In this document: positions 3,287 to 51,508 of the stretch, one piece after another | Layout: each line of letters starts with the position of its first letter | How positions within the stretch are numbered: position 1 is the first letter of the stretch | Origin: Acidobacterium sp. | GTDB taxonomy: Bacteria > Acidobacteriota > Vicinamibacteria > Vicinamibacterales > UBA2999 | Reading direction: 5' to 3' | Assembly (NCBI GenBank): GCA_002737365.1 | Contig: NSIL01000015.1 | Coordinates: 2,199-66,198 of the forward strand | DNA: 64,000 bases | Position numbers and translations under genes: made by a program | Notes under the pieces: generated by a model | Databases searched by the model: none | Seen by the model: only the letters and a program-made list of their open reading frames with translations | Told to the model about the DNA's origin: nothing

Positions 3287-4020
3287 TTGGGGGTCGGAGG
3301 CGCCATGGCCGCGGTCAGATCGGCACGCCCACGCTGGGCAGTGTCGACGTTGTTGGCCGGCACCGATTCCGCGCGGAGGCGAAGTGCGGTCTCGGCCAGT
3401 CCCCAGGCGCTGCGCACCAGCGCGTGGCTGTTCACCAGTTCGGCGGGCGGCGTGACCTTGCCGATCCTGATGGCCGCTGCCGCCAGGCGTCGGGCGAGGG
3501 GCTTGATGGTGTGGAGCGGCGGACCCGACATGGTCTTGATCTGATCGAGGCTGACGGTCGCGTCGCGGAAGAGGTTGAACGAGCCGTTCATGGAGCGGCG
3601 GTACTTCCGGAAGAACTGGTCACGCTTCTCCCATTCCTTGCGGGCGTTGCGCGAGTCGCTGGCGCCGGCGGCCTGGGCGTCGACGGTGGCTAGTTCCGAG
3701 CTGAACTTGGTGAAGTCGGCCTCGCCGCGGGTATTGGCGTAGACGGCCGCGTGAACCGACTCGGTGTACTGCTCGGTCCGCGGCCAATCGACTCGCCCGG
3801 ACGGGATATTCACCAGGTGGAGCTCGACGGGATCGGCGGTCAGCCGGGCCGGAATGGAGAAAATGACCCGATCTTCGACGCGCGCCCACTCGCCATAGCT
3901 CGCCAGCACCCGGCCGTCCGACAGAAACACCCGGAACAGCACACGACTGGCCGGCGCCTGCGCCTGGGCCACAGACGGGCTGAGAAGAGCGGTGAGAAGC
4001 AGCGCCTGGTAGACGATCAC
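3283..4020 (-). CDS. secreted hypothetical protein, first gene of the addBA unit
   Basis: 245 aa with a signal-peptide-like N-terminus; stop overlaps the addB start. May carry an internal deletion near ELATVDAQ. Confidence 0.65.
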   Translation of the reverse strand: MIVYQALLLTALLSPSVAQAQAPASRVLFRVFLSDGRVLASYGEWARVEDRVIFSIPARLTADPVELHLVNIPSGRVDWPRTEQYTESVHAAVYANTRGEADFTKFSSELATVDAQAAGASDSRNARKEWEKRDQFFRKYRRSMNGSFNLFRDATVSLDQIKTMSGPPLHTIKPLARRLAAAAIRIGKVTPPAELVNSHALVRSAWGLAETALRLRAESVPANNVDTAQRGRADLTAAMAPPTPK

Positions 4021-20123: not shown

Positions 20124-22238
20124 ATGTCGACTCTTCGTCTTGCTGCGCTGCTCGCCCTGATCGCCCCCACCGCGTTGTTGGCCCAGGCGCCCCAGGCGCC
20201 CAACATCACCCTGCCGACGGTCATCGTCACGGCGCAGAAAGAAGCTGAAGACGTCAAGGCGGTGCCGGCCAGCGTGACCGTGGTAACGGCCACGACGATC
20301 GCTGATGCCGGCCTGCGCGTGATCACCGAGGCGGCGTGGTATGCGCCGAACACGGTGTTCACCGAGTTCACGGCCCGCAAGGTCAGTAACGCCCGGTTCC
20401 GCGGCATTGGCTCGAGCCCGGCCAATCCGGCGATCACGACCTATCTCGACGGCGTGCCGCAGTTGAACAGCAACTCCTCGAACATTGAGCTGCTCGACGT
20501 CGATCAGATCGAGTTCGTGCGTGGCCCGCAGAGTGCGTTGTTCGGCCGCAACACGCTTGGCGGCATTGTCAATGTGACCAGCACGCCGCCCTCCACCGCG
20601 GCGTGGACGGGATCAGTGGTGGCGCCGTTTGGTGACTATGGTTCGAAGGAAGTGCGCGGCAACGTCTCGGGCCCGCTCGGCGACAAGGCCGCCATGAGCT
20701 TCGCGGTCGGCAAGCAGCAGCGCGAGGGCTACACGGTGAACCAGGTCACCGGCCACGATCTCGACTCTCGCGACGGCACGTTTGCCAAGGCGCAGTTGCT
20801 GCTGACGCCCAACGCCAACTGGCAGGCCCGCGTCATCTACTCGCACGAGCGCAATCGCGACGGCGACTACGCGCTGGGCGACCTGAACGCGATTCGTGCC
20901 AATCCCTTTGTGGTGAGGCGTGACTTCGAGGGCTTCACCAACCGCGACATCAACGGCACCACGATCAACCTGCGCGGCACCGGACAGAACTTCTCGATTG
21001 AATCGACCACCGGTTTCGTCAAGTGGAGCACTGAAGACGAAACTGACCTGGACTACACCCCGCTGCCGCTGGCCACGCGCCGCAACTCCGAGGACAGCTT
21101 CCAGTTCACCCAGGAAGTGCGCTTGGCATCACCCGAGAACGCGCCGATGCAGCTGTCGGACGCCTTCTCCCTGAAGTGGCAGGGCGGCGTGGCGTTGTTC
21201 AATCAGAACTACGACCAGCTCGCCGTCAACTCACTGTCGGCCTTCGTGCTGTCGCCGCTCATCCCGTTTCCGGTGGCGCAGACCTCGCCTGAGTCAGCGA
21301 TCAACAGCGCTGGGTTCGGCCTGTTCGGCCAGGGCACGCTGACCGTCAACGAGCAGACCGATCTGATTGTCGGTCTGCGATTCGATCACGAGTCGAGCGA
21401 CGCGGTGCTCAACACGTTCTTCACACCGGCGATTGCCCCGGCTAACCGCGTGACGGCCGAGGACAGTTATTCGGATCTGTCGCCGCAGATCGCGGTCTCT
21501 TACCGGCCCGTGGCCGACACCTCGCTCTATGCCTCGGTCAACCGTGGCTTCAAGGCCGGCGGCTTCAATCCCGCCGCGCTGCCGGGCAGCGAAGCCTACG
21601 ACGAAGAGCAGGCCTGGCACGTCGAAGGCGGCGTCAAGTCCACGTTCGCCGGCGGCAAGGCCTCGGCCAGCGCCGCGATCTTCCAGATCAAGTGGGACGA
21701 CATGCAGCTGAACGTGCCGAACCCGTTCGTGCCTGGCCAGTTCTACATCCAGAACGTCGGCCGCGCGCACAGCCGCGGCCTCGAGCTCGACCTGACGGCG
21801 CGCCCGCACCCATCGGTCGATGTGTTCACGTCGTTCGGCTTCACCAGCGCGTACTTCAGGGACGGCACGATGGCGGCCGGCGTCAACGTGGGCGGCAACA
21901 AGCTGCCCTACACGCCGGCGTATACCGGCGTGATCGGCACCCAGCTCACCCGTGCGATCACCTCGGCGGTCACGCTCTACGGCCGCGGCGAGGTTGCGTT
22001 CTATGGTCCGTTCGAGTACGACGAGGCGAACACGGCTCGCCAGGGGGCCTACCGGCTGGCGAACGTCCGCGCCGGCACGCGTGGCAAGCGGCTGTTCGCC
22101 GAAACCTGGATCCGCAACGCCTTCGACACCAGGTACGTGCCGATTGCCATCCCCTACCAGGGTTTGGCACCCTCAGGGTTTATCGGCGAGCATGGCCGCC
22201 CGCGGACGTTCGGCGTCAGCGCCGGCGTCACGTTCTGA
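20124..22238 (+). CDS. TonB-dependent receptor (FyuA-like)
   Basis: TVIVTAQK TonB box, IEFVRGPQSALFGRNTLGG plug, C-terminal Phe. Confidence 0.93.
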   Translation: MSTLRLAALLALIAPTALLAQAPQAPNITLPTVIVTAQKEAEDVKAVPASVTVVTATTIADAGLRVITEAAWYAPNTVFTEFTARKVSNARFRGIGSSPANPAITTYLDGVPQLNSNSSNIELLDVDQIEFVRGPQSALFGRNTLGGIVNVTSTPPSTAAWTGSVVAPFGDYGSKEVRGNVSGPLGDKAAMSFAVGKQQREGYTVNQVTGHDLDSRDGTFAKAQLLLTPNANWQARVIYSHERNRDGDYALGDLNAIRANPFVVRRDFEGFTNRDINGTTINLRGTGQNFSIESTTGFVKWSTEDETDLDYTPLPLATRRNSEDSFQFTQEVRLASPENAPMQLSDAFSLKWQGGVALFNQNYDQLAVNSLSAFVLSPLIPFPVAQTSPESAINSAGFGLFGQGTLTVNEQTDLIVGLRFDHESSDAVLNTFFTPAIAPANRVTAEDSYSDLSPQIAVSYRPVADTSLYASVNRGFKAGGFNPAALPGSEAYDEEQAWHVEGGVKSTFAGGKASASAAIFQIKWDDMQLNVPNPFVPGQFYIQNVGRAHSRGLELDLTARPHPSVDVFTSFGFTSAYFRDGTMAAGVNVGGNKLPYTPAYTGVIGTQLTRAITSAVTLYGRGEVAFYGPFEYDEANTARQGAYRLANVRAGTRGKRLFAETWIRNAFDTRYVPIAIPYQGLAPSGFIGEHGRPRTFGVSAGVTF

Positions 22239-24853: not shown

Positions 24854-25448
24854 CCATCGCCTGAACGATCCGGTACTCGGTGGGCGTATCGATATCCAGG
24901 AACGCGCCGTCGTCTGAGATCGACACATCGAGGCGTCGCGACGCGTGCGCGGCAAACACCGCCTTGGCGCCGACCGCTGGGTCGGCGCATCGCAGGTCAT
25001 CAAAGACCGCGCGATCGAAGACCACGGGGTGACCGTGGCGATCGCCATCCACCGGCCGGACGATGGGGGCGCGAGTCTGGCGCCAGGCGTGCACGATGGC
25101 CGCCACCGAGTCGGGCCTGACCAGCGGCACGTCCACCAGCGTCACTAGAATCGCCTCCAGCTGCGGATCGTCGACCGCCGCGAGACCGGCCAGCAAAGAC
25201 GACAGTTGCCCCTGTGCCCACCCGGGATGCTCAATGACGCAGGCGCGCGGTTCAAAGCGCGGCATCGCGCCGCGCACGGCGTCGATGTGCGCGCCCGCCA
25301 CCACCGCGACGCTGGGCAATCCGGCCGCCAGCAAGGTGGCCACGACCCGCGAAACTACCGTGTCTCCAGTTGTCCCCAAAGGTAGGGCCGCCTTGGCCTG
25401 TCCCATCCTGGACGAGGCGCCGGCGGCAAGGACAATGGCTCGTATCAT
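24810..25448 (-). CDS. MocA-like molybdenum cofactor cytidylyltransferase family protein
   Basis: LAAGASSRMG, GQLSSL, LVDVP, GHPVVF, DIDTP. Confidence 0.88.
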   Translation of the reverse strand: MIRAIVLAAGASSRMGQAKAALPLGTTGDTVVSRVVATLLAAGLPSVAVVAGAHIDAVRGAMPRFEPRACVIEHPGWAQGQLSSLLAGLAAVDDPQLEAILVTLVDVPLVRPDSVAAIVHAWRQTRAPIVRPVDGDRHGHPVVFDRAVFDDLRCADPAVGAKAVFAAHASRRLDVSISDDGAFLDIDTPTEYRIVQAMAIDKLVESPGRESA

Positions 25449-26760: not shown

Positions 26761-27450
26761 CTACACCAGCAGCGCGAGCACCCTCTGCGTATCCGACAAG
26801 TCCGCCAGGACGAAGTCCGCGCCGGCCGCGCGCAGCTCTTCAACCGAGTGGCCGCCCGTCGCGACGGCAATTGAGATCGCGCCGGCCACGCGCGCGCATT
26901 CGATGTCGAACGGTGTGTCACCGATCACGATCACGCGCTCCAGTGCCTCGGCCGGCACGTCATAAATCTCCGCGCGCTGCCGCGCGATCGGCACCAGCGC
27001 ATTGCGGTCCGCCGCATCATCGCTAAACGCGCCCCATTCGAAGAACTCCCACAGCTCGAAGTGCGTCAGCTTGACCTCGGCCGCCGCGCGGTAGTTGCCC
27101 GTCAGCAGCGCGAGGTGCAGATGATCGTGGTCAAGCAGCGCCTCGATCAGCTCGCGCGCACCCGGCATGAGCCCCTTGTGACCCGTGCCGGGATGCTGGA
27201 TCTCTTCGGCCAGCAAGGGCACGTAGGTGTCGCGGAAGCGAGCGTGATTCTCGGCGCTGTCGGGCAAGCCCGCCGCCTTCAGCCCGTGGCTCAGCAGAAA
27301 CGAGTCGGTGCGGCCGCCAAACGAGGTGCCGGCAAAGGCGTCGGCGACGCCAAACGTCTGCTCGAACGCGCGATTCATGGCACGCAAGCCGGCGCGGCCA
27401 CTCAGGAGCAGCGTGCCATCAATGTCAAACAGGAGCAATGCGGGTTTCAT
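26761..27450 (-). CDS. HAD-superfamily hydrolase (phosphoglycolate phosphatase-like)
   Basis: FDIDGTL, LLTGN, IGDTPFD. Confidence 0.9.
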   Translation of the reverse strand: MKPALLLFDIDGTLLLSGRAGLRAMNRAFEQTFGVADAFAGTSFGGRTDSFLLSHGLKAAGLPDSAENHARFRDTYVPLLAEEIQHPGTGHKGLMPGARELIEALLDHDHLHLALLTGNYRAAAEVKLTHFELWEFFEWGAFSDDAADRNALVPIARQRAEIYDVPAEALERVIVIGDTPFDIECARVAGAISIAVATGGHSVEELRAAGADFVLADLSDTQRVLALLV

Positions 27451-27475: not shown

Positions 27476-28183
27476 TCAGGAGAACAACTTCTTCAGAAAT
27501 CCAACTGGCTTCAGATCGCCAGTGGCGGCTACCAGTTCCAAGCGCTGTCCACCGATCGCTTTCGCGAGTTCATCGTCGGCGGTCAACGCCAGCAACGCCA
27601 GCCCGCGCGAGCGGGCCAGACGCGCCAGGTCGGCACCAAACGCGCTGACCGTCGCTCGCGGCAAGCTCGCCGACGGATGCTCGGCCAGCAGCATGCGGGG
27701 ACCAAGCGCCAGCGCGCGCGCCAGGTGAATGCGCATGTGAGTGTCGGGCCCGGTGCGTCCCGCAGGCATCTCGAAAGTCTCGGCGGCCAGTCCAACTTCC
27801 TTGGCGAGGGCCACGACGTCGGGCAGCACCCCAGGATCGATCGGATCGACCTCAAGCGTGTACGACAGGGCGATGTTCTGCAACACGGTGAACATCTCGA
27901 TCACGATGCCGCGGGAGGTGACCATGCCGACGCCGTCCAGCGACTTGAGCCACGCGGTGCCGTCGGTGATGACCTTGGTGTTCTGGCCGAACAACGCGAC
28001 TTCACCGCTGTCAGGCAAGGTCGCGCCGGTCACCAGGTTGACGAACGTCTGAGCGGCAATCGCATCGAGACCGTTGACGGCGACGAGGTCGCCGCTGGTG
28101 AGGGACAGGGAACGGATGCGGAGCGGGCGCAGCGCCTGGTAGTCCTTGACCAGGCCGCTGACCTCGAGCAGCGGCGCGCTCAC
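27476..28183 (-). CDS. ABC-ATPase-fold protein with degenerate catalytic motifs
   Basis: ABC scaffold (LLEVSGLVKDY, PDSGEV, FTVLQNI, ARALALGP), but Walker A, LSGGQ and Walker B are all altered. Confidence 0.8.
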   Translation of the reverse strand: MSAPLLEVSGLVKDYQALRPLRIRSLSLTSGDLVAVNGLDAIAAQTFVNLVTGATLPDSGEVALFGQNTKVITDGTAWLKSLDGVGMVTSRGIVIEMFTVLQNIALSYTLEVDPIDPGVLPDVVALAKEVGLAAETFEMPAGRTGPDTHMRIHLARALALGPRMLLAEHPSASLPRATVSAFGADLARLARSRGLALLALTADDELAKAIGGQRLELVAATGDLKPVGFLKKLFS

Positions 28184-29040
28184 GACGCGCGATGCTCGCC
28201 GGCGCGACGTTCGAGCGCGGCAAAATCATCGGGCGGCAGCAGCACCGCACCGAGCGTGCTGCGTCTGGCGCGCGACTTCTCCACGGCATCCTGTGGAGCG
28301 GACCCGTGAAAATCTGAACCACCGCTCACGAGTATCCCCAGCCGCTGCGCCAGGCCGCGATATTGCTGCACGTCTTCGCCCTGGTGATCGGAGTGGTAGA
28401 TCTCGATGGCGTCGAGGCCGTGTTCGGCCAGCGGCCGAATCAGGTCATCGCGCTTCGTCACACCCGGATGGGCGAACGACGCGATGCCTCCCGCGGCATG
28501 AATCACGTCAACCACGTCGGCCGGACTTGGGCCGGTGCGTGGCACAAAGGCCGGCAGTCCCGTCGCCAGCCAACGTTCAAACGCATCCTGAACCGAGCTA
28601 ACGTGTCCGGCACTGACCAGCGCGCGCGCGATCTGCGGACGGCCGACCGACGTGCCGGGACGCAGGGCGGCGGTGCTCACGAGTGCTTCGACATCGACCG
28701 GCATCCCCAGCCGCTCAAGCCGGGCGCCAATCTCGCGGACGCGTGACACACGCTGCGCGCGCTGGCCTTCGAGGAACGCCAGCAGCGGCGCGCTGGCCGG
28801 GTTGAAGAAGTAGCCCAGCAGGTGGACGTCACGGCCATCGGCGACCGAGGTCACCTCGATGCCGGGCACGACCCGGATGCCGTGGCCGGCGGCCTCGACG
28901 CCCACCTCGGCGAGGGCGGCGACCGTGTCGTGATCGGTCACGCTCATGGTGGTGATGCCGGCGGCGGCGACGCGCGCCACCAGTTGCGCCGGTGACAAGC
29001 GGCCGTCAGAGGCGGTCGTATGGAGATGAAGGTCGATCAA
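28180..29040 (-). CDS. PHP-domain phosphoesterase (TrpH/YciV-like)
   Basis: IDLHLHTTASDG, TDHD, VHLLGY, AHP, GGSDFHG. Confidence 0.93.
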   Translation of the reverse strand: MIDLHLHTTASDGRLSPAQLVARVAAAGITTMSVTDHDTVAALAEVGVEAAGHGIRVVPGIEVTSVADGRDVHLLGYFFNPASAPLLAFLEGQRAQRVSRVREIGARLERLGMPVDVEALVSTAALRPGTSVGRPQIARALVSAGHVSSVQDAFERWLATGLPAFVPRTGPSPADVVDVIHAAGGIASFAHPGVTKRDDLIRPLAEHGLDAIEIYHSDHQGEDVQQYRGLAQRLGILVSGGSDFHGSAPQDAVEKSRARRSTLGAVLLPPDDFAALERRAGEHRAS

Positions 29041-30053
29041 CGGCTGGCGGTGCGCGGACGCGCCTTGGCGCGCCCGGCTTGAGGGCGCTTCGAGGCCGCC
29101 AGCGGCTTGTGGCCGGGGGCGCGCTGCCGCTTGACGAGGGCGCGATACTCGCGGATCAGCAACTCCAGGTGTTCGCGCTCTTCCTCAGCAAACTCCAGGA
29201 ACACCTGCTTGCCTTCGGAGTCCTCGAAGCGCTCGCCGTAGCGCTTGAAGAACCGGTGCGAGCCGCGCTCGCAGCGAATGCCGATGCGATAGGCCTCGAG
29301 GTCGTCGACGCCGTCGCGGCGCAATTGATCAGTACCCGCGGCAAACAGCCCGTTGGCCGCGCCCTTGAAGAACAGGAACGTCGGCCGCGATTCGAGCAAC
29401 GGGTCCTGCTTCAGCAAGGTTTCGTAGCGCGCCTCGAGCGTCTTCAGGTGGTGCACTTCTTCAGTGGCTAGTTTGCGGAAGACCTCGCGCGCCCGCGGGT
29501 CCTGCACCAGCTTGACGCCACGGCCGTAGAACTCCATCCCGCTACGCTCGGTGGCGATCGCAATGCGCAGTGCGTCACGCGCGAACAGCAGTGCGGAGTT
29601 TGAGGGCTCTTCGGGCGCCCGGCCGGTGCGGCACGATTCGCAGGTGCCGTAGACTTGGACCACGCTCTGGTGGGCGGTGAAGGCACGGGCCGCCGCGACT
29701 TCCTCGACCAGCGACTCGATGTCTGAGCTGAGGAATTCGTACGAGCGTTTGCAGGTCTTGCAGATCAGGTGAAAGTGCCGCGGATGACGGTACGAGTGCT
29801 CGAAGCGGAACCGGCCTTCGCCGAAGTCCACCTTGCGGGCAATGCCCGCCTCTTCCATCCACAGCAGGGTGCGATAGACCGTGGCGCGGCTGATGCGCTC
29901 GTCTTCGCGCTTGATCAGCACGACCAGATCGTCGGCACTCAAGTGTCCCTCCTGCTTGAGGAACACGTTGACGATCAGGTCGCGCTTGCTCGAACGCTTG
30001 GTCCCGGCGGGCCGCAGCCGATCGAGATCCGGAATGGCCGCCGTACTGGCCAT
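29037..30053 (-). CDS. Fur-family regulator fused to a rubrerythrin/ferritin-like diiron domain
   Basis: Fur part: HLSADD, SRATVYRTL, HFHLICKTC, GTCESC. C-terminal part: E...EEVHH and E...EEREH. Confidence 0.88.
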   Translation of the reverse strand: MASTAAIPDLDRLRPAGTKRSSKRDLIVNVFLKQEGHLSADDLVVLIKREDERISRATVYRTLLWMEEAGIARKVDFGEGRFRFEHSYRHPRHFHLICKTCKRSYEFLSSDIESLVEEVAAARAFTAHQSVVQVYGTCESCRTGRAPEEPSNSALLFARDALRIAIATERSGMEFYGRGVKLVQDPRAREVFRKLATEEVHHLKTLEARYETLLKQDPLLESRPTFLFFKGAANGLFAAGTDQLRRDGVDDLEAYRIGIRCERGSHRFFKRYGERFEDSEGKQVFLEFAEEEREHLELLIREYRALVKRQRAPGHKPLAASKRPQAGRAKARPRTASR

Positions 30054-30061
30054 GGCGCTCT

Positions 30062-30439
30062 CTAGGCAGAGAAGGACGAACCGCAGCCGCAGGTCGACGT
30101 CGCGTTGGGGTTCTTGATGGTGAAGCCGCCGCCCGTGATGGTGTCGACGAAGTCCACTTCGGCACCCTTCAGGTAGCTGACGCTGACCGGATCCACGAAC
30201 AGGCGCACGCCATTCGATTCGAACAGCTGATCGCCGACGCCGCCACCTTCTTCGATCATCAGGCCGTACTGGAAGCCCGAGCAGCCACCGCCCTGAACGA
30301 AGACGCGCAAACCGCTCTCCAGCTTGCCTTCTTCGGACAGCAGTTCGCGGATCTTGCCGGCCGCCGATTCGGTGACCGTAATCATCGGGTCGGTCATCGG
30401 GGGCATGGATGGCGTGGGAGTCTGAGTTTCAGTCTGCAT
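30062..30439 (-). CDS. erpA: A-type Fe-S carrier protein (ErpA/IscA/HesB)
   Basis: GGGCSGFQY and [14 protein letters not shown]. Confidence 0.92.
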
Positions 30440-30487
30440 GTCGATACGCCTCTTGATGGGAATACTTTAGGCGTAGATTCTATCAGA

Positions 30488-32038
<1,551 letters not shown>

Positions 32039-49489: not shown

Positions 49490-51508
49490 ATGAGGCATCG
49501 ACTGGTTGGCGGCACTGCCGCATTTCTCCTCTCTCTGGTGGCGCTGGTCACGGCGCAACAGGCCCCGGCTCCGCGGCCGGTTGATGATGCGGCGCTGGCG
49601 AAGCCGGAGGCGAGAAACCAGGACTGGCTGTCGTACGGGCGCGACTACTACGAGCAGCGCTTCAGCCCACTCGATCAGATTACCGACGCCAATGCCGCCA
49701 AGCTCGGACTGGCGTGGTCGTTTGAAACCGCGACGGATCGCGGTCTCGAGGCGACCCCGCTCGTCATCGACGGCATCATGTACACCACCGCGTCATGGAG
49801 CGTTGTCTACGCCGTGGATGCCAGGACGGGCCAGCAGCTCTGGAAGTTCGATCCCGAAGTGCATCGCAAGTACGACCAGCTGGCGTGTTGCGATGTCGTC
49901 AACCGCGGCGCGGCGTTCTACAAGGGCCGCGTCTATGTCGGCGCGCTCGATGGCCGGCTGATCGCGATCGACGCCAAGAGCGGCAAGCCGGCATGGTCGG
50001 TCACGACGGTGGATCAGAAGCAGGCGTACACCAGCACCGGAGCGCCCCGCATCGCCAAAGGTAAGGTGATCATCGGCAACGGCGGCGCCGAGTACGGCGT
50101 GCGCGGCTATGTCTCCGCCTACGATGCCGAGACGGGCAAGCTGGCGTGGCGCTTCTACACGGTCCCAGGAGATCCGTCGAAACCGCAGGAGAACAAGGCG
50201 CTCGACAAGGCCTTGCCGACGTGGAAGGGCGACAACTGGTGGAAGTTCGGCGGCGGCGGCACGGTGTGGGATTCAATCGTCTACGACCCCGAGATCAACC
50301 TGCTCTACGTCGGCACCGGCAACGGCGCGGCGTGGAACCGCGAGATTCGAAGTCCAGGTGGCGGCGACAACCTCTACCTGGCGTCCATCCTCGCCATCAA
50401 CCCCGATAACGGCGAGCTGGTCTGGCACTACCAGACCACGCCCGGCGACACCTGGGACTACACGGCGGTGCAGCCGATGATGCTGGCCGACCTGCAGATT
50501 GGTGGCCGCCTGCGCAAGGTGATCATGCAGGCGCCAAAGAACGGGTTCTTCTACGTGCTCGATCGGGCGACGGGCGAACTGCTCTCGGCGGATCCGTACG
50601 TCACGGTCAACTGGGCGTCGCATGTCGACCTGAAGACCGGACGGCCGGTCGAGATTGCCGGCGCGGACTACAAGGAGAAGGGCACCTACATCCGCCCGGG
50701 ACCACTGGGCGGCCACAACTGGCAGGCCATGTCGTTCAGCCCCAAGACTGGTCTTGTCTACATTCCCGCGCAGGATAACGGGCGCTACTACGAGCAGCCG
50801 ACGGAGTTCGAATACAAGCCGCTCGAGTACAACCTGGGCGTGGGACCGATCGGCCGGAACCTGGACCGCTACGAGGTGCCGTACGCGGGGCGGTTGCTGG
50901 CGTGGGACCCGGTCGCGCGCAAGCCGCGCTGGACCGCGGAGTACGGCTCCTATTGGAACGGCGGCACGCTGGCCACCGCCGGCAACCTCGTCTTTCAGGG
51001 CACCGCGCTCGGCGACTTCATCGCCTACAACGCCGCCACCGGCGAGAAGCTCTGGTCGTCGTGGGCGACCACCGGCATCGTCGCGCCGCCCATCACCTAC
51101 ATGATCGACGGCAAGCAGTACGTATCGGTGATGGCGGGTTGGGGTGGCGCGTTCCCGAAGAAAACACGCAGTTACGGCCGCCTGTTGACGTTCACGATCG
51201 GCGGCACTGCTGCCTTGCCCGCGCGGCCGCGGCCGCGGACGGTCACCGCCATTGCCAGCAACGCCAGGCCTGAAGAGATCGCCGCGGGCGGCAAGATCTT
51301 CAACACCTACTGCGCGCGTTGCCATGGCGGCGCCACGATTCTTCCGGACCTGCGGCGGTCATCGCCCGGCATCTACACTGGACTCGACAAGATTCTGGAC
51401 GGCTCGCTGGTGGAACGCGGCATGCCGCGCTTTGCGGAACTCGACAAGGCCGCCGTGGCGGCCCTGCGAGCGTATCTGCTGGACGAGCGAAAGAAGCTGG
51501 TGCAGTAG
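49490..51508 (+). CDS. PQQ-dependent quinohemoprotein alcohol dehydrogenase (type II)
   Basis: ACCDVVNRG vicinal disulfide, GAEYG, WDYT, C-terminal CARCH heme c motif. Confidence 0.93.

Follow-up and report, generated by a model that had tools for sequence, protein, structure and literature searches.

A Fur-family regulator with a C-terminal ferritin-like diiron domain in Acidobacteriota

Fur is the textbook regulator of iron, and the usual view is that Fur-family proteins detect metals or peroxide at a single mononuclear site. A gene in a 64,000-nucleotide stretch of contig NSIL01000015.1 (the window; its genome of origin is called G000 here) raises the question of what a Fur-family regulator could do with a second iron centre in the same polypeptide. 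A first-pass annotation of the window had described this gene, at 29037..30053 on the minus strand, as a complete Fur joined to a rubrerythrin-type diiron domain. We find that the fusion is genuine, that the residues of both predicted metal sites are kept in most of its relatives, and that the diiron bundle may serve as a second, built-in input of a working Fur-family regulator, a reading to which we give a probability of roughly 0.45. A second, chemically different iron centre would thus form part of a Fur regulator. The design is conserved over a major phylum of soils and fresh waters, and some genomes have no Fur other than the fused protein.

Two predicted iron sites in one polypeptide

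The fused gene is a single open reading frame (ORF) of 338 codons plus stop, and its translation contains no internal stop. In Pfam searches, the 338-amino-acid protein matched FUR (E value 4e-25; 88.6 bits against a cut-off of 23.1; residues 16-135) and Rubrerythrin PF02915 (E value 8e-10; 39.7 bits against a cut-off of 22.8), the latter over two stretches of the C-terminal half. The AlphaFold2 model, built from a 78-row alignment (mean predicted local distance difference test [pLDDT], 88.5; predicted template modelling score, 0.82), has a Fur fold followed by four long helices, in agreement with the four-helix bundle described earlier. On these grounds the minus-strand gene can be divided into a Fur module with winged-helix DNA-binding and dimerisation domains (residues 1-143; 29625..30053; Pfam, alignment and Foldseek), a linker of nine residues, GRAPEEPSN (residues 144-152; 29598..29624), a ferritin-like four-helix bundle (residues 153-311; 29121..29597; PF02915, modelled helices, ligands and VIA-align), and an Arg/Lys-rich tail (residues 312-338; 29040..29120). 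The linker is non-helical in the model and varies in sequence and length among homologs. The tail was modelled with low confidence (mean pLDDT of about 54-70 in the last three ten-residue blocks); it is carried by the window's clade and is short or missing in the distant clade.

The Fur module is complete. Residues 16-135 match the PF01475 profile from end to end (positions 2-121 of 121), and the motifs on which the first-pass annotation had relied, SRATVYRTL (residues 55-63), H93-F-H95, C98xxC101 and C138xxC141, are all present. Alignment to the corresponding residues of Magnetospirillum gryphiswaldense Fur places the regulatory site at H37, E85, H93, H95 and E106, and alignment to solved Fur proteins places the structural Cys4 at the two CxxC pairs (C98, C101, C138 and C141). 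To assess conservation, 78 full-length fused homologs with 29-93% identity to the window protein were aligned. The complete set of nine residues is retained in 77 of them, and the four cysteines are invariant in 78/78; the one protein that departs from the set, P0150, lacks most of the diiron ligands as well.

Aspartate at both carboxylates of the regulatory site marks the peroxide-sensitive PerR (D85 and D104 in Bacillus subtilis PerR), and glutamate marks Fur. Glutamate occupies position 85 in 78/78 homologs and position 106 in 77/78, and the NCBIfam ranking of the fused protein puts Fur equivalogs first, followed by PerR and Zur. With glutamate at both carboxylates and Fur equivalogs at the top, the regulatory site is, as read from sequence, Fur-like and not PerR-like. 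None of the equivalog cut-offs was reached (72.9 against 220 for Bacillus-type Fur, 64.9 against 146 for PRK09462, 55.9 against 180 for PerR and 52.3 against 167 for Zur). Because all of these scores are far under the cut-off, the protein is a Fur-family member outside every named subtype (Fur proper, PerR, Zur, Irr).

A Foldseek search of the PDB with the model listed Fur structures only, with a probability of 1.00 and template modelling (TM) scores of 0.85 for 1mzb (root-mean-square deviation [rmsd], 2.1 Å), 0.83 for 6h1c and 0.77 for 4rb1. The best fit was to metal-bound, closed Fur, and apo PerR fitted poorly (rmsd of about 15 Å). Across the canonical Fur proteins of Pseudomonas aeruginosa (1mzb/6h1c), M. 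gryphiswaldense (4raz/4rb1) and Campylobacter jejuni (4ets/6d57), the fold is the same (target-normalised TM scores of 0.74-0.85), identity is 28-34%, and the regulatory site of five residues recurs together with both CxxC pairs. The fused protein differs from them by about 190 additional C-terminal residues, which form the diiron bundle, and by loss of the second His/Asp/Glu/His site of M. gryphiswaldense Fur, at which it has R92, F94 and a variable position 128.

In the C-terminal module, the AlphaFold2 helices span residues 153-182 (A), 186-216 (B), 251-275 (C) and 280-311 (D), with a long connection between B and C. The six predicted diiron ligands are E169 on helix A, E199 and H202 on B, E262 on C, and E292 and H295 on D. 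They lie in the two repeats reported earlier (ATE169RSG with E199-V-H-H202, and RCE262RGS with E292-R-E-H295), all four motifs of which are present. Their conservation in homologs, on which the earlier reading depended, is borne out: the EEHEEH set is complete in 72/78, and six proteins (P0124, P0150, P0163, L043, L045 and L052) have an incomplete set. A second-sphere tyrosine, Y176, seven residues past E169, is kept in 75/78. Two residues at the beginning of helix A, R159 and D160, are invariant.

The label 'rubrerythrin-type' holds in part. The PF02915 match and the diiron bundle are common to the fused protein and to rubrerythrin, nigerythrin and symerythrin (1yux, 3sid). Strict rubrerythrins, however, have a rubredoxin-like domain and a seventh ligand, a second Glu three residues past the helix-C Glu. 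Neither PF21349 nor any other rubredoxin match was found in the fused protein by Pfam, a single cysteine (C261) lies past C141, and the place of the seventh ligand, position 265, is held by Ala (47 homologs), Ser (27), Thr (3) or Asn (1). With no rubredoxin domain and no seventh glutamate, the label is too narrow.

Nearer folds were found in a VIA-align search of the PDB with residues 151-315, independent of Foldseek. The best match was Pa DpsL (PA4880; 8w1d; Z 16.2; rmsd, 2.5 Å; 136 aligned residues), followed by a COG1633 protein (2oh3; Z 16.1), thioferritin (2vzb; Z 15.4), a COG1633-type protein (2fzf; Z 14.8), mini-bacterioferritin (9qq4; Z 14.5), symerythrin (3sid; Z 12.3) and nigerythrin (1yux; Z 12.0). 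DpsL, the COG1633 proteins (2oh3, 2fzf and 1vjx) and thioferritin (Z 13.4-16.2 as a group) share the four-helix bundle and the intrasubunit E/ExxH/E/ExxH arrangement, and the C-terminal domain also has weak sequence matches to 2fzf and 1vjx. All of these are stand-alone proteins, several of them 12-mer cages, and none has a Fur-type DNA-binding domain. Judged jointly from the Z scores, the Pfam match and the ligand pattern, the modelled C-terminal module is of the single-domain ferritin-like diiron type, with DpsL/COG1633 folds as its nearest relatives. A two-copy complex prediction for residues 151-312 scored 0.00 against a mark of 0.42, which gives no verdict either way.

Recurrence and genomic setting of the fusion

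A word-indexed protein search returned 5360 matches among 7999 scored candidates; all 120 listed carry both Pfam domains, and the named proteins among them come from Acidobacteriota or Vicinamibacterales. An exhaustive search of representatives recovered full-length fused members down to 33% identity, and a search seeded with P0156 gave two-domain proteins only, the named ones from Acidobacteriota or Terriglobia, with which cluster look-ups concur. With thousands of proteins sharing the architecture at identities as low as about 30%, the fusion is no chance event. The most conserved peptide, at the start of helix A (F[AV]RDA[LM][RK][IM]A[MIL]), gave at least 599 pattern matches in species-representative genomes, of which at least 596 were confirmed as relatives.

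In a profile search of 401 sampled Acidobacteriota genomes, 379 had a Fur-type match of any kind. Full-length fused matches (profile positions of about 3-316; E value of 1e-95 or lower) came in 69 rows from 68 genomes, a count that includes the unpublished genome G049. Within the window's order 36 of 37 genomes, G000 among them, have the fused gene; it is present in 0/2 genomes of the sister family f13, and patchily over 11 other families. Rows flagged '1 TGA/TAA inside' are alignments that overrun the natural stop; in the two flagged genomes whose loci were fetched (G088, locus L039; G260, locus L051) the ORF is intact at 316 amino acids. Some records of metagenome-assembled genomes (MAGs) titled Acidimicrobiia, cyanobacterium/Cyanobacteriota or Bifidobacteriaceae encode proteins 76-91% identical to that of the window in the same erpA context (L088, L092, L093, L095, L096, L105, L108, L109, L139 and L141); among the best 80 records the proteins so titled are 79-92% identical. 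These off-phylum titles look like taxonomic mislabels.

In G000 itself (3.05 Mb, 97% complete), PF01475 and PF02915 each match exactly once, in both cases at the fused gene. A tally of the match column shows no match besides the fused gene in 31 of the 68 fused genomes, where matches per genome are not copy numbers. The other iron genes of G000 include one DtxR-type regulator, three ferritin-family genes, two feoB and many TonB-dependent receptors.

Whether the fusion arose once or several times is left undecided by a quick maximum-likelihood tree of 98 Fur domains, which needs 4 label changes, of which well-supported branches force 1. The C-terminal domain alone gave 623 short matches, the named ones among the 120 listed being labelled 'partial'; some short matches lie on long contigs (P0429, P0439, P0464, P0487, P0496 and P0508). 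At 20 Acidobacteriota plain-Fur loci, tblastn found neither a gene resembling the C-terminal domain (E value up to 0.01) nor erpA within 2 kb. In the plain Fur of family f56 (L069, L070), the second CxxC is replaced by a longer Cys-containing stretch (C...FPPYC), a variant structural site. Outside the phylum, an ESM Atlas cluster of 91 members of ~313 amino acids, commonest in Bacillota, combines FUR (95%), Rubrerythrin (97%) and RUBY_RBDX (98%). It too would be a natural Fur-rubrerythrin fusion, but it has a rubredoxin-like domain and belongs to another phylum; it is probably a second fusion of independent origin, and with a feature score of only 0.81 it is a lead.

The fused gene lies directly behind erpA and an iron-sulfur (Fe-S) fumarase, as the first-pass annotation had stated. 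The minus-strand order is class I (Fe-S) fumarate hydratase (30488..32038; Pfam Fumerase and Fumerase_C), an erpA-type A-type Fe-S carrier gene (30062..30439; Pfam Fe-S_biosyn, E value 1e-19), the fused gene, a PHP-domain phosphoesterase (28180..29040; Pfam PHP), a 235-amino-acid ORF without a Pfam match (27476-28183) and a HAD hydrolase (26761-27450). The erpA stop is 8 nt ahead of the fused-gene start, and the TTG start of the PHP gene overlaps the fused-gene stop (TTGA). By tblastn, the 235-amino-acid ORF and the HAD hydrolase are found in many loci of the same order; read by eye, the N terminus of the former resembles an ABC ATPase with a degenerate Walker A.

Synteny with erpA, proposed earlier as a check on the fusion, is a property of the window's order and not of the fusion as a whole. 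Across 80 related loci from named MAGs, taken with 1.5-kb flanks, erpA is directly upstream in all 79 with enough flank, as it is in all same-order loci examined, the PHP gene is downstream in 67 of 72 with enough flank, and the fumarase is visible in 68. At 16 distant-class loci, in contrast, erpA is never adjacent (0/16); 15 have none within 6 kb, and the erpA homolog of L052 is about 5.6 kb away on the upstream side. The PHP gene is likewise unlinked to the fused gene at these 16 loci, and the neighbours vary: a Macro domain (2 loci), a 4Fe-4S ferredoxin (3), a methyltransferase with an M24 peptidase (2), sigma-70 and others. The small 4Fe-4S dicluster ferredoxin genes stand directly beside the fused gene (L042, 5396-5854; L043, 5429-5977; L052, 6961-7536). 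E262 is replaced at the two f51 loci (L043 and L052), and all six ligands are kept at the f97 locus (L042); the ferredoxin may serve as an electron partner, or its presence may be a compensating change.

An extended -10-like element, TGATAGAAT (30477..30485, minus strand; by eye), begins 3 nt past the fumarase stop, with its TAGAAT hexamer 6 nt past it. In most of the same-order loci shown, a hexamer of the TATAAT/TAGAAT/TATACT/TACACT type is visible by eye shortly upstream of erpA, which suggests a separate promoter for erpA and the fused gene; TGATAGAAT is thus the probable promoter of an erpA-fur operon. The spacer at 30440-30510, singled out in the first-pass annotation, holds this conserved -10-like element and no recognisable Fur-type palindrome.

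DNA of this stretch was found in freshwater and lake metagenomes from several studies, and contigs from four RNA-library runs, each of a different study, cover the fused gene and bridge its junction with erpA: X15 (28368-30277, which also bridges the PHP junction), X17 (29419-30366), X18 (29665-30400) and X19 (29865-30440). A further X18 contig (29004-29613) bridges the PHP junction. These contigs make a fair but not conclusive case that the fused gene is expressed, and co-transcribed with erpA, in lake communities. The single X19 contig stops at 30440, one base ahead of the erpA ATG, and continues into adapter sequence; this hints at the end of a transcript or fragment, with an erpA mRNA that may be leaderless.

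Possible roles of the diiron domain

Taken together with what is known of related proteins, these features suggest how the protein might work. The Fur module would bind DNA as a dimer once its His3Glu2 site holds Fe2+, as classical Fur does, and the ferritin-like bundle, set off by the nine-residue linker after the dimerisation domain, would bind two iron atoms. In the diferrous state the diiron domain would react with O2 or H2O2, and under iron scarcity its site would be empty. A change in its redox or occupancy state could then alter the Fur dimer in geometry, stability or oligomerisation and hence affect DNA binding. One polypeptide would in this way integrate iron supply and oxidant load, a task for which other bacteria use Fur together with a separate PerR or OxyR. 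Its gene, in the window's order, would share a transcript and a dedicated promoter with erpA, the Fe-S carrier gene. With a regulatory site of Fur type and not of PerR type, the protein would have to take any oxidant signal through the diiron bundle.

Hemerythrin-domain signalling proteins (bacterial Bhr-diguanylate cyclases and mammalian FBXL5) use a diiron helical bundle as the O2 or iron input to an output domain; the fused protein may work alike, although theirs is a hemerythrin fold with other outputs and no homology is implied. According to PMC545781, perR and rbr are operon partners in Desulfovibrio, Geobacter and Desulfuromonas (perR-rbr-rdl in Desulfovibrio vulgaris and perR-rbr-roo in Geobacter), so that the fusion joins two functions already linked. 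Those systems couple a Fur-family regulator to a diiron rubrerythrin-family protein as two proteins, the rubrerythrin having a rubredoxin domain or partner, whereas the fused protein is a single chain without rubredoxin and has Glu in place of Asp. PMC11150526 describes Pa DpsL as oxidising Fe2+ with O2 or H2O2 at an intrasubunit ferroxidase centre, and since DpsL is the nearest fold, the same chemistry is plausible for the C-terminal domain.

A stronger claim, that the bundle is a true sensor of O2/H2O2 and iron that switches the DNA-binding state of a regulator which many Acidobacteriota have as their sole Fur, and so a single-polypeptide replacement for Fur plus PerR or OxyR, strikes us as doubtful. 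The boldest form, drawn by analogy, would add DpsL-like self-assembly: a Fur-targeted, sequence-specific mini-ferritin that would repress genes and oxidise iron on the DNA. If the diiron site does modulate DNA binding, this would be a new coupling of iron homeostasis to oxygen or peroxide stress, a transcription factor would for the first time be known to carry a diiron sensor domain of the ferritin-like (non-hemerythrin) type, and the finding would help to explain iron management in slow-growing, hard-to-culture Acidobacteriota.

The view of the architecture as uncharacterised stands as far as the literature search reached: no paper on a Fur-ferritin-like or Fur-rubrerythrin fusion was found in full-text literature, with subscription journals and supplementary files beyond reach, and a paper on rubrerythrin evolution (PMC5114695) has 0 occurrences of 'Fur', 'regulator' or 'DNA-binding'. 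The present analysis newly adds the sole-Fur status in a streamlined freshwater genome, an erpA linkage (79/79) that is limited to one order, and cover of the gene by RNA-library contigs. It is also new in mapping E106 as the fifth ligand, in finding the second site lost and in assigning the fold to the DpsL/COG1633 type, as are the Bacillota lead and the negative operator searches.

Several observations weigh against the bundle being a second input of the regulator. Communication between the diiron site and the DNA-binding domain is something that we infer. Five of the six ligand-incomplete homologs retain the Fur site and all six retain the domain, which hints that the domain may have an additional, metal-independent role. 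For helical bundles, Z scores of 14-16 are near the range that unrelated bundles can reach. RNA libraries can contain DNA, and contigs from them cannot prove a single transcript. The DtxR-type regulator of G000 adjoins a feo operon, so control of iron may be shared, or may not depend on the fused protein. Finally, searches of the genome, the spacer and the loci identified no operator for the fused Fur, and the textbook 19-bp Fur box had no convincing match in the 3.05-Mb genome, the best having 4 mismatches and lying in repeat-like sequence.

The most serious alternative, unlikely in our estimate, is that the fusion is a collapsed perR/fur-rbr-type operon in which the diiron domain is a ferroxidase or peroxidase that detoxifies H2O2/O2 or Fe2+ and exerts no control over DNA binding. 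As a variant, the bundle may protect the Fe2+-loaded regulator and the DNA around it against Fenton chemistry. Conservation of the complete ligand set and of Y176 is what a catalytic centre would show, the fused protein is the only PF02915 protein of G000, and both the ferroxidase activity of the nearest fold (Pa DpsL, Z 16.2; PMC11150526) and the existence of the perR-rbr-rdl, perR-rbr-roo and perR1-rbr operons (PMC545781) fit an enzyme joined to its regulator. Such an enzyme would need to be reconciled with the absence of a rubredoxin domain and of a conserved neighbouring electron-donor gene, the 4Fe-4S ferredoxin being adjacent at only 3/16 distant loci; regulators, moreover, are normally far less abundant than scavenging enzymes, and no unfused neighbour arrangement was seen within 2 kb at the 20 Acidobacteriota plain-Fur loci searched by tblastn. 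Less probable again is a structural or iron-buffering module that provides an extra self-association surface, for anything from tetramers to a Dps-like cage, or an iron reservoir that loads the Fur site, with a diiron site that stabilises the fold and does not sense. The closest folds (Pa DpsL, thioferritin 2vzb and mini-bacterioferritin 9qq4) are described as cage-forming or dimeric, P0150 and L045 retain the domain with degenerate ligands, and the window's clade has the additional basic tail; a purely structural role, however, does not need six ligands conserved in 72/78 homologs.

The erpA linkage raises a different possibility, that the Fur Cys4 takes a [2Fe-2S] cluster from co-transcribed ErpA, as proposed for Escherichia coli Fur, with the diiron domain as an accessory. 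E. coli Fur is reported to bind [2Fe-2S] in a manner that requires IscU (PMC11001641), erpA is immediately upstream in 79/79 related loci with an 8-nt spacer in the window, and the four cysteines are invariant (78/78). We nevertheless regard this route as improbable: erpA is adjacent at 0/16 distant-class fused loci despite the same protein design, an invariant Cys4 is equally expected for structural zinc, and the diiron domain is left unexplained. An assembly or annotation artefact, in the form of a chimera of two neighbouring genes such as the deletion chimera against which the first-pass annotation had cautioned, has a negligible chance of being correct. No support for it was found in this analysis, and recurrence rules it out: 68/401 genomes (single-contig genomes included) and at least 596 species genomes have the same uninterrupted ORF, and RNA-library contigs carry it independently.

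Palindromes near iron genes

The search for an operator of the fused Fur extended to further palindromes in G000. Perfect AT-rich 7-1-7 palindromes in the genome had no recurring half-site. Upstream of erpA or the fused gene, no palindrome was common to the same-order or to the distant loci, and only -10-like hexamers were conspicuous. The genome's best PF00593 match, a TonB-dependent receptor barrel domain, is also in the window (about 20937-22076, plus strand), at a distance of 7 kb from the fused gene; no palindrome in common with other iron genes was seen upstream of it.

One palindrome, TTGAGAC-N3-GTCTCAA, precedes feoAB2 and also sits in the divergent spacer between a 256-amino-acid and a 397-amino-acid ORF. 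With up to 1 mismatch it occurs at two places in G000 (contig C22, about 25038-25058; contig C54, about 50929-51013, which is 3430-3515 of locus L166), and a weaker third copy with 3 mismatches lies 64 bp from one of them. Read by eye, the two flanking ORFs look like LamB/YcsF-like and PepSY-type membrane genes. At the same threshold the palindrome is found in 140 of the 401 Acidobacteriota genomes, more commonly than a reversed control. By tally, it is present in 27/68 fused genomes and in 113/333 others (counts that include one match each in the unpublished genomes G024, G049 and G152). Since it occurs with and without the fused gene, it is not specific to the fused Fur, and it was rejected as the fused-Fur operator on the strength of the 113/333 genomes without the fusion. 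It is likely a phylum-wide metal operator.

A second element, the perfect 8-4-8 palindrome AATTTTGA-N4-TCAAAATT (contig C54, 75976-75995), is unique in G000 and lies between the DtxR-type gene (75713-75895, minus strand) and feoB1 (77108-77563, plus strand). Its position makes it a probable operator for the neighbouring DtxR-family regulator itself.

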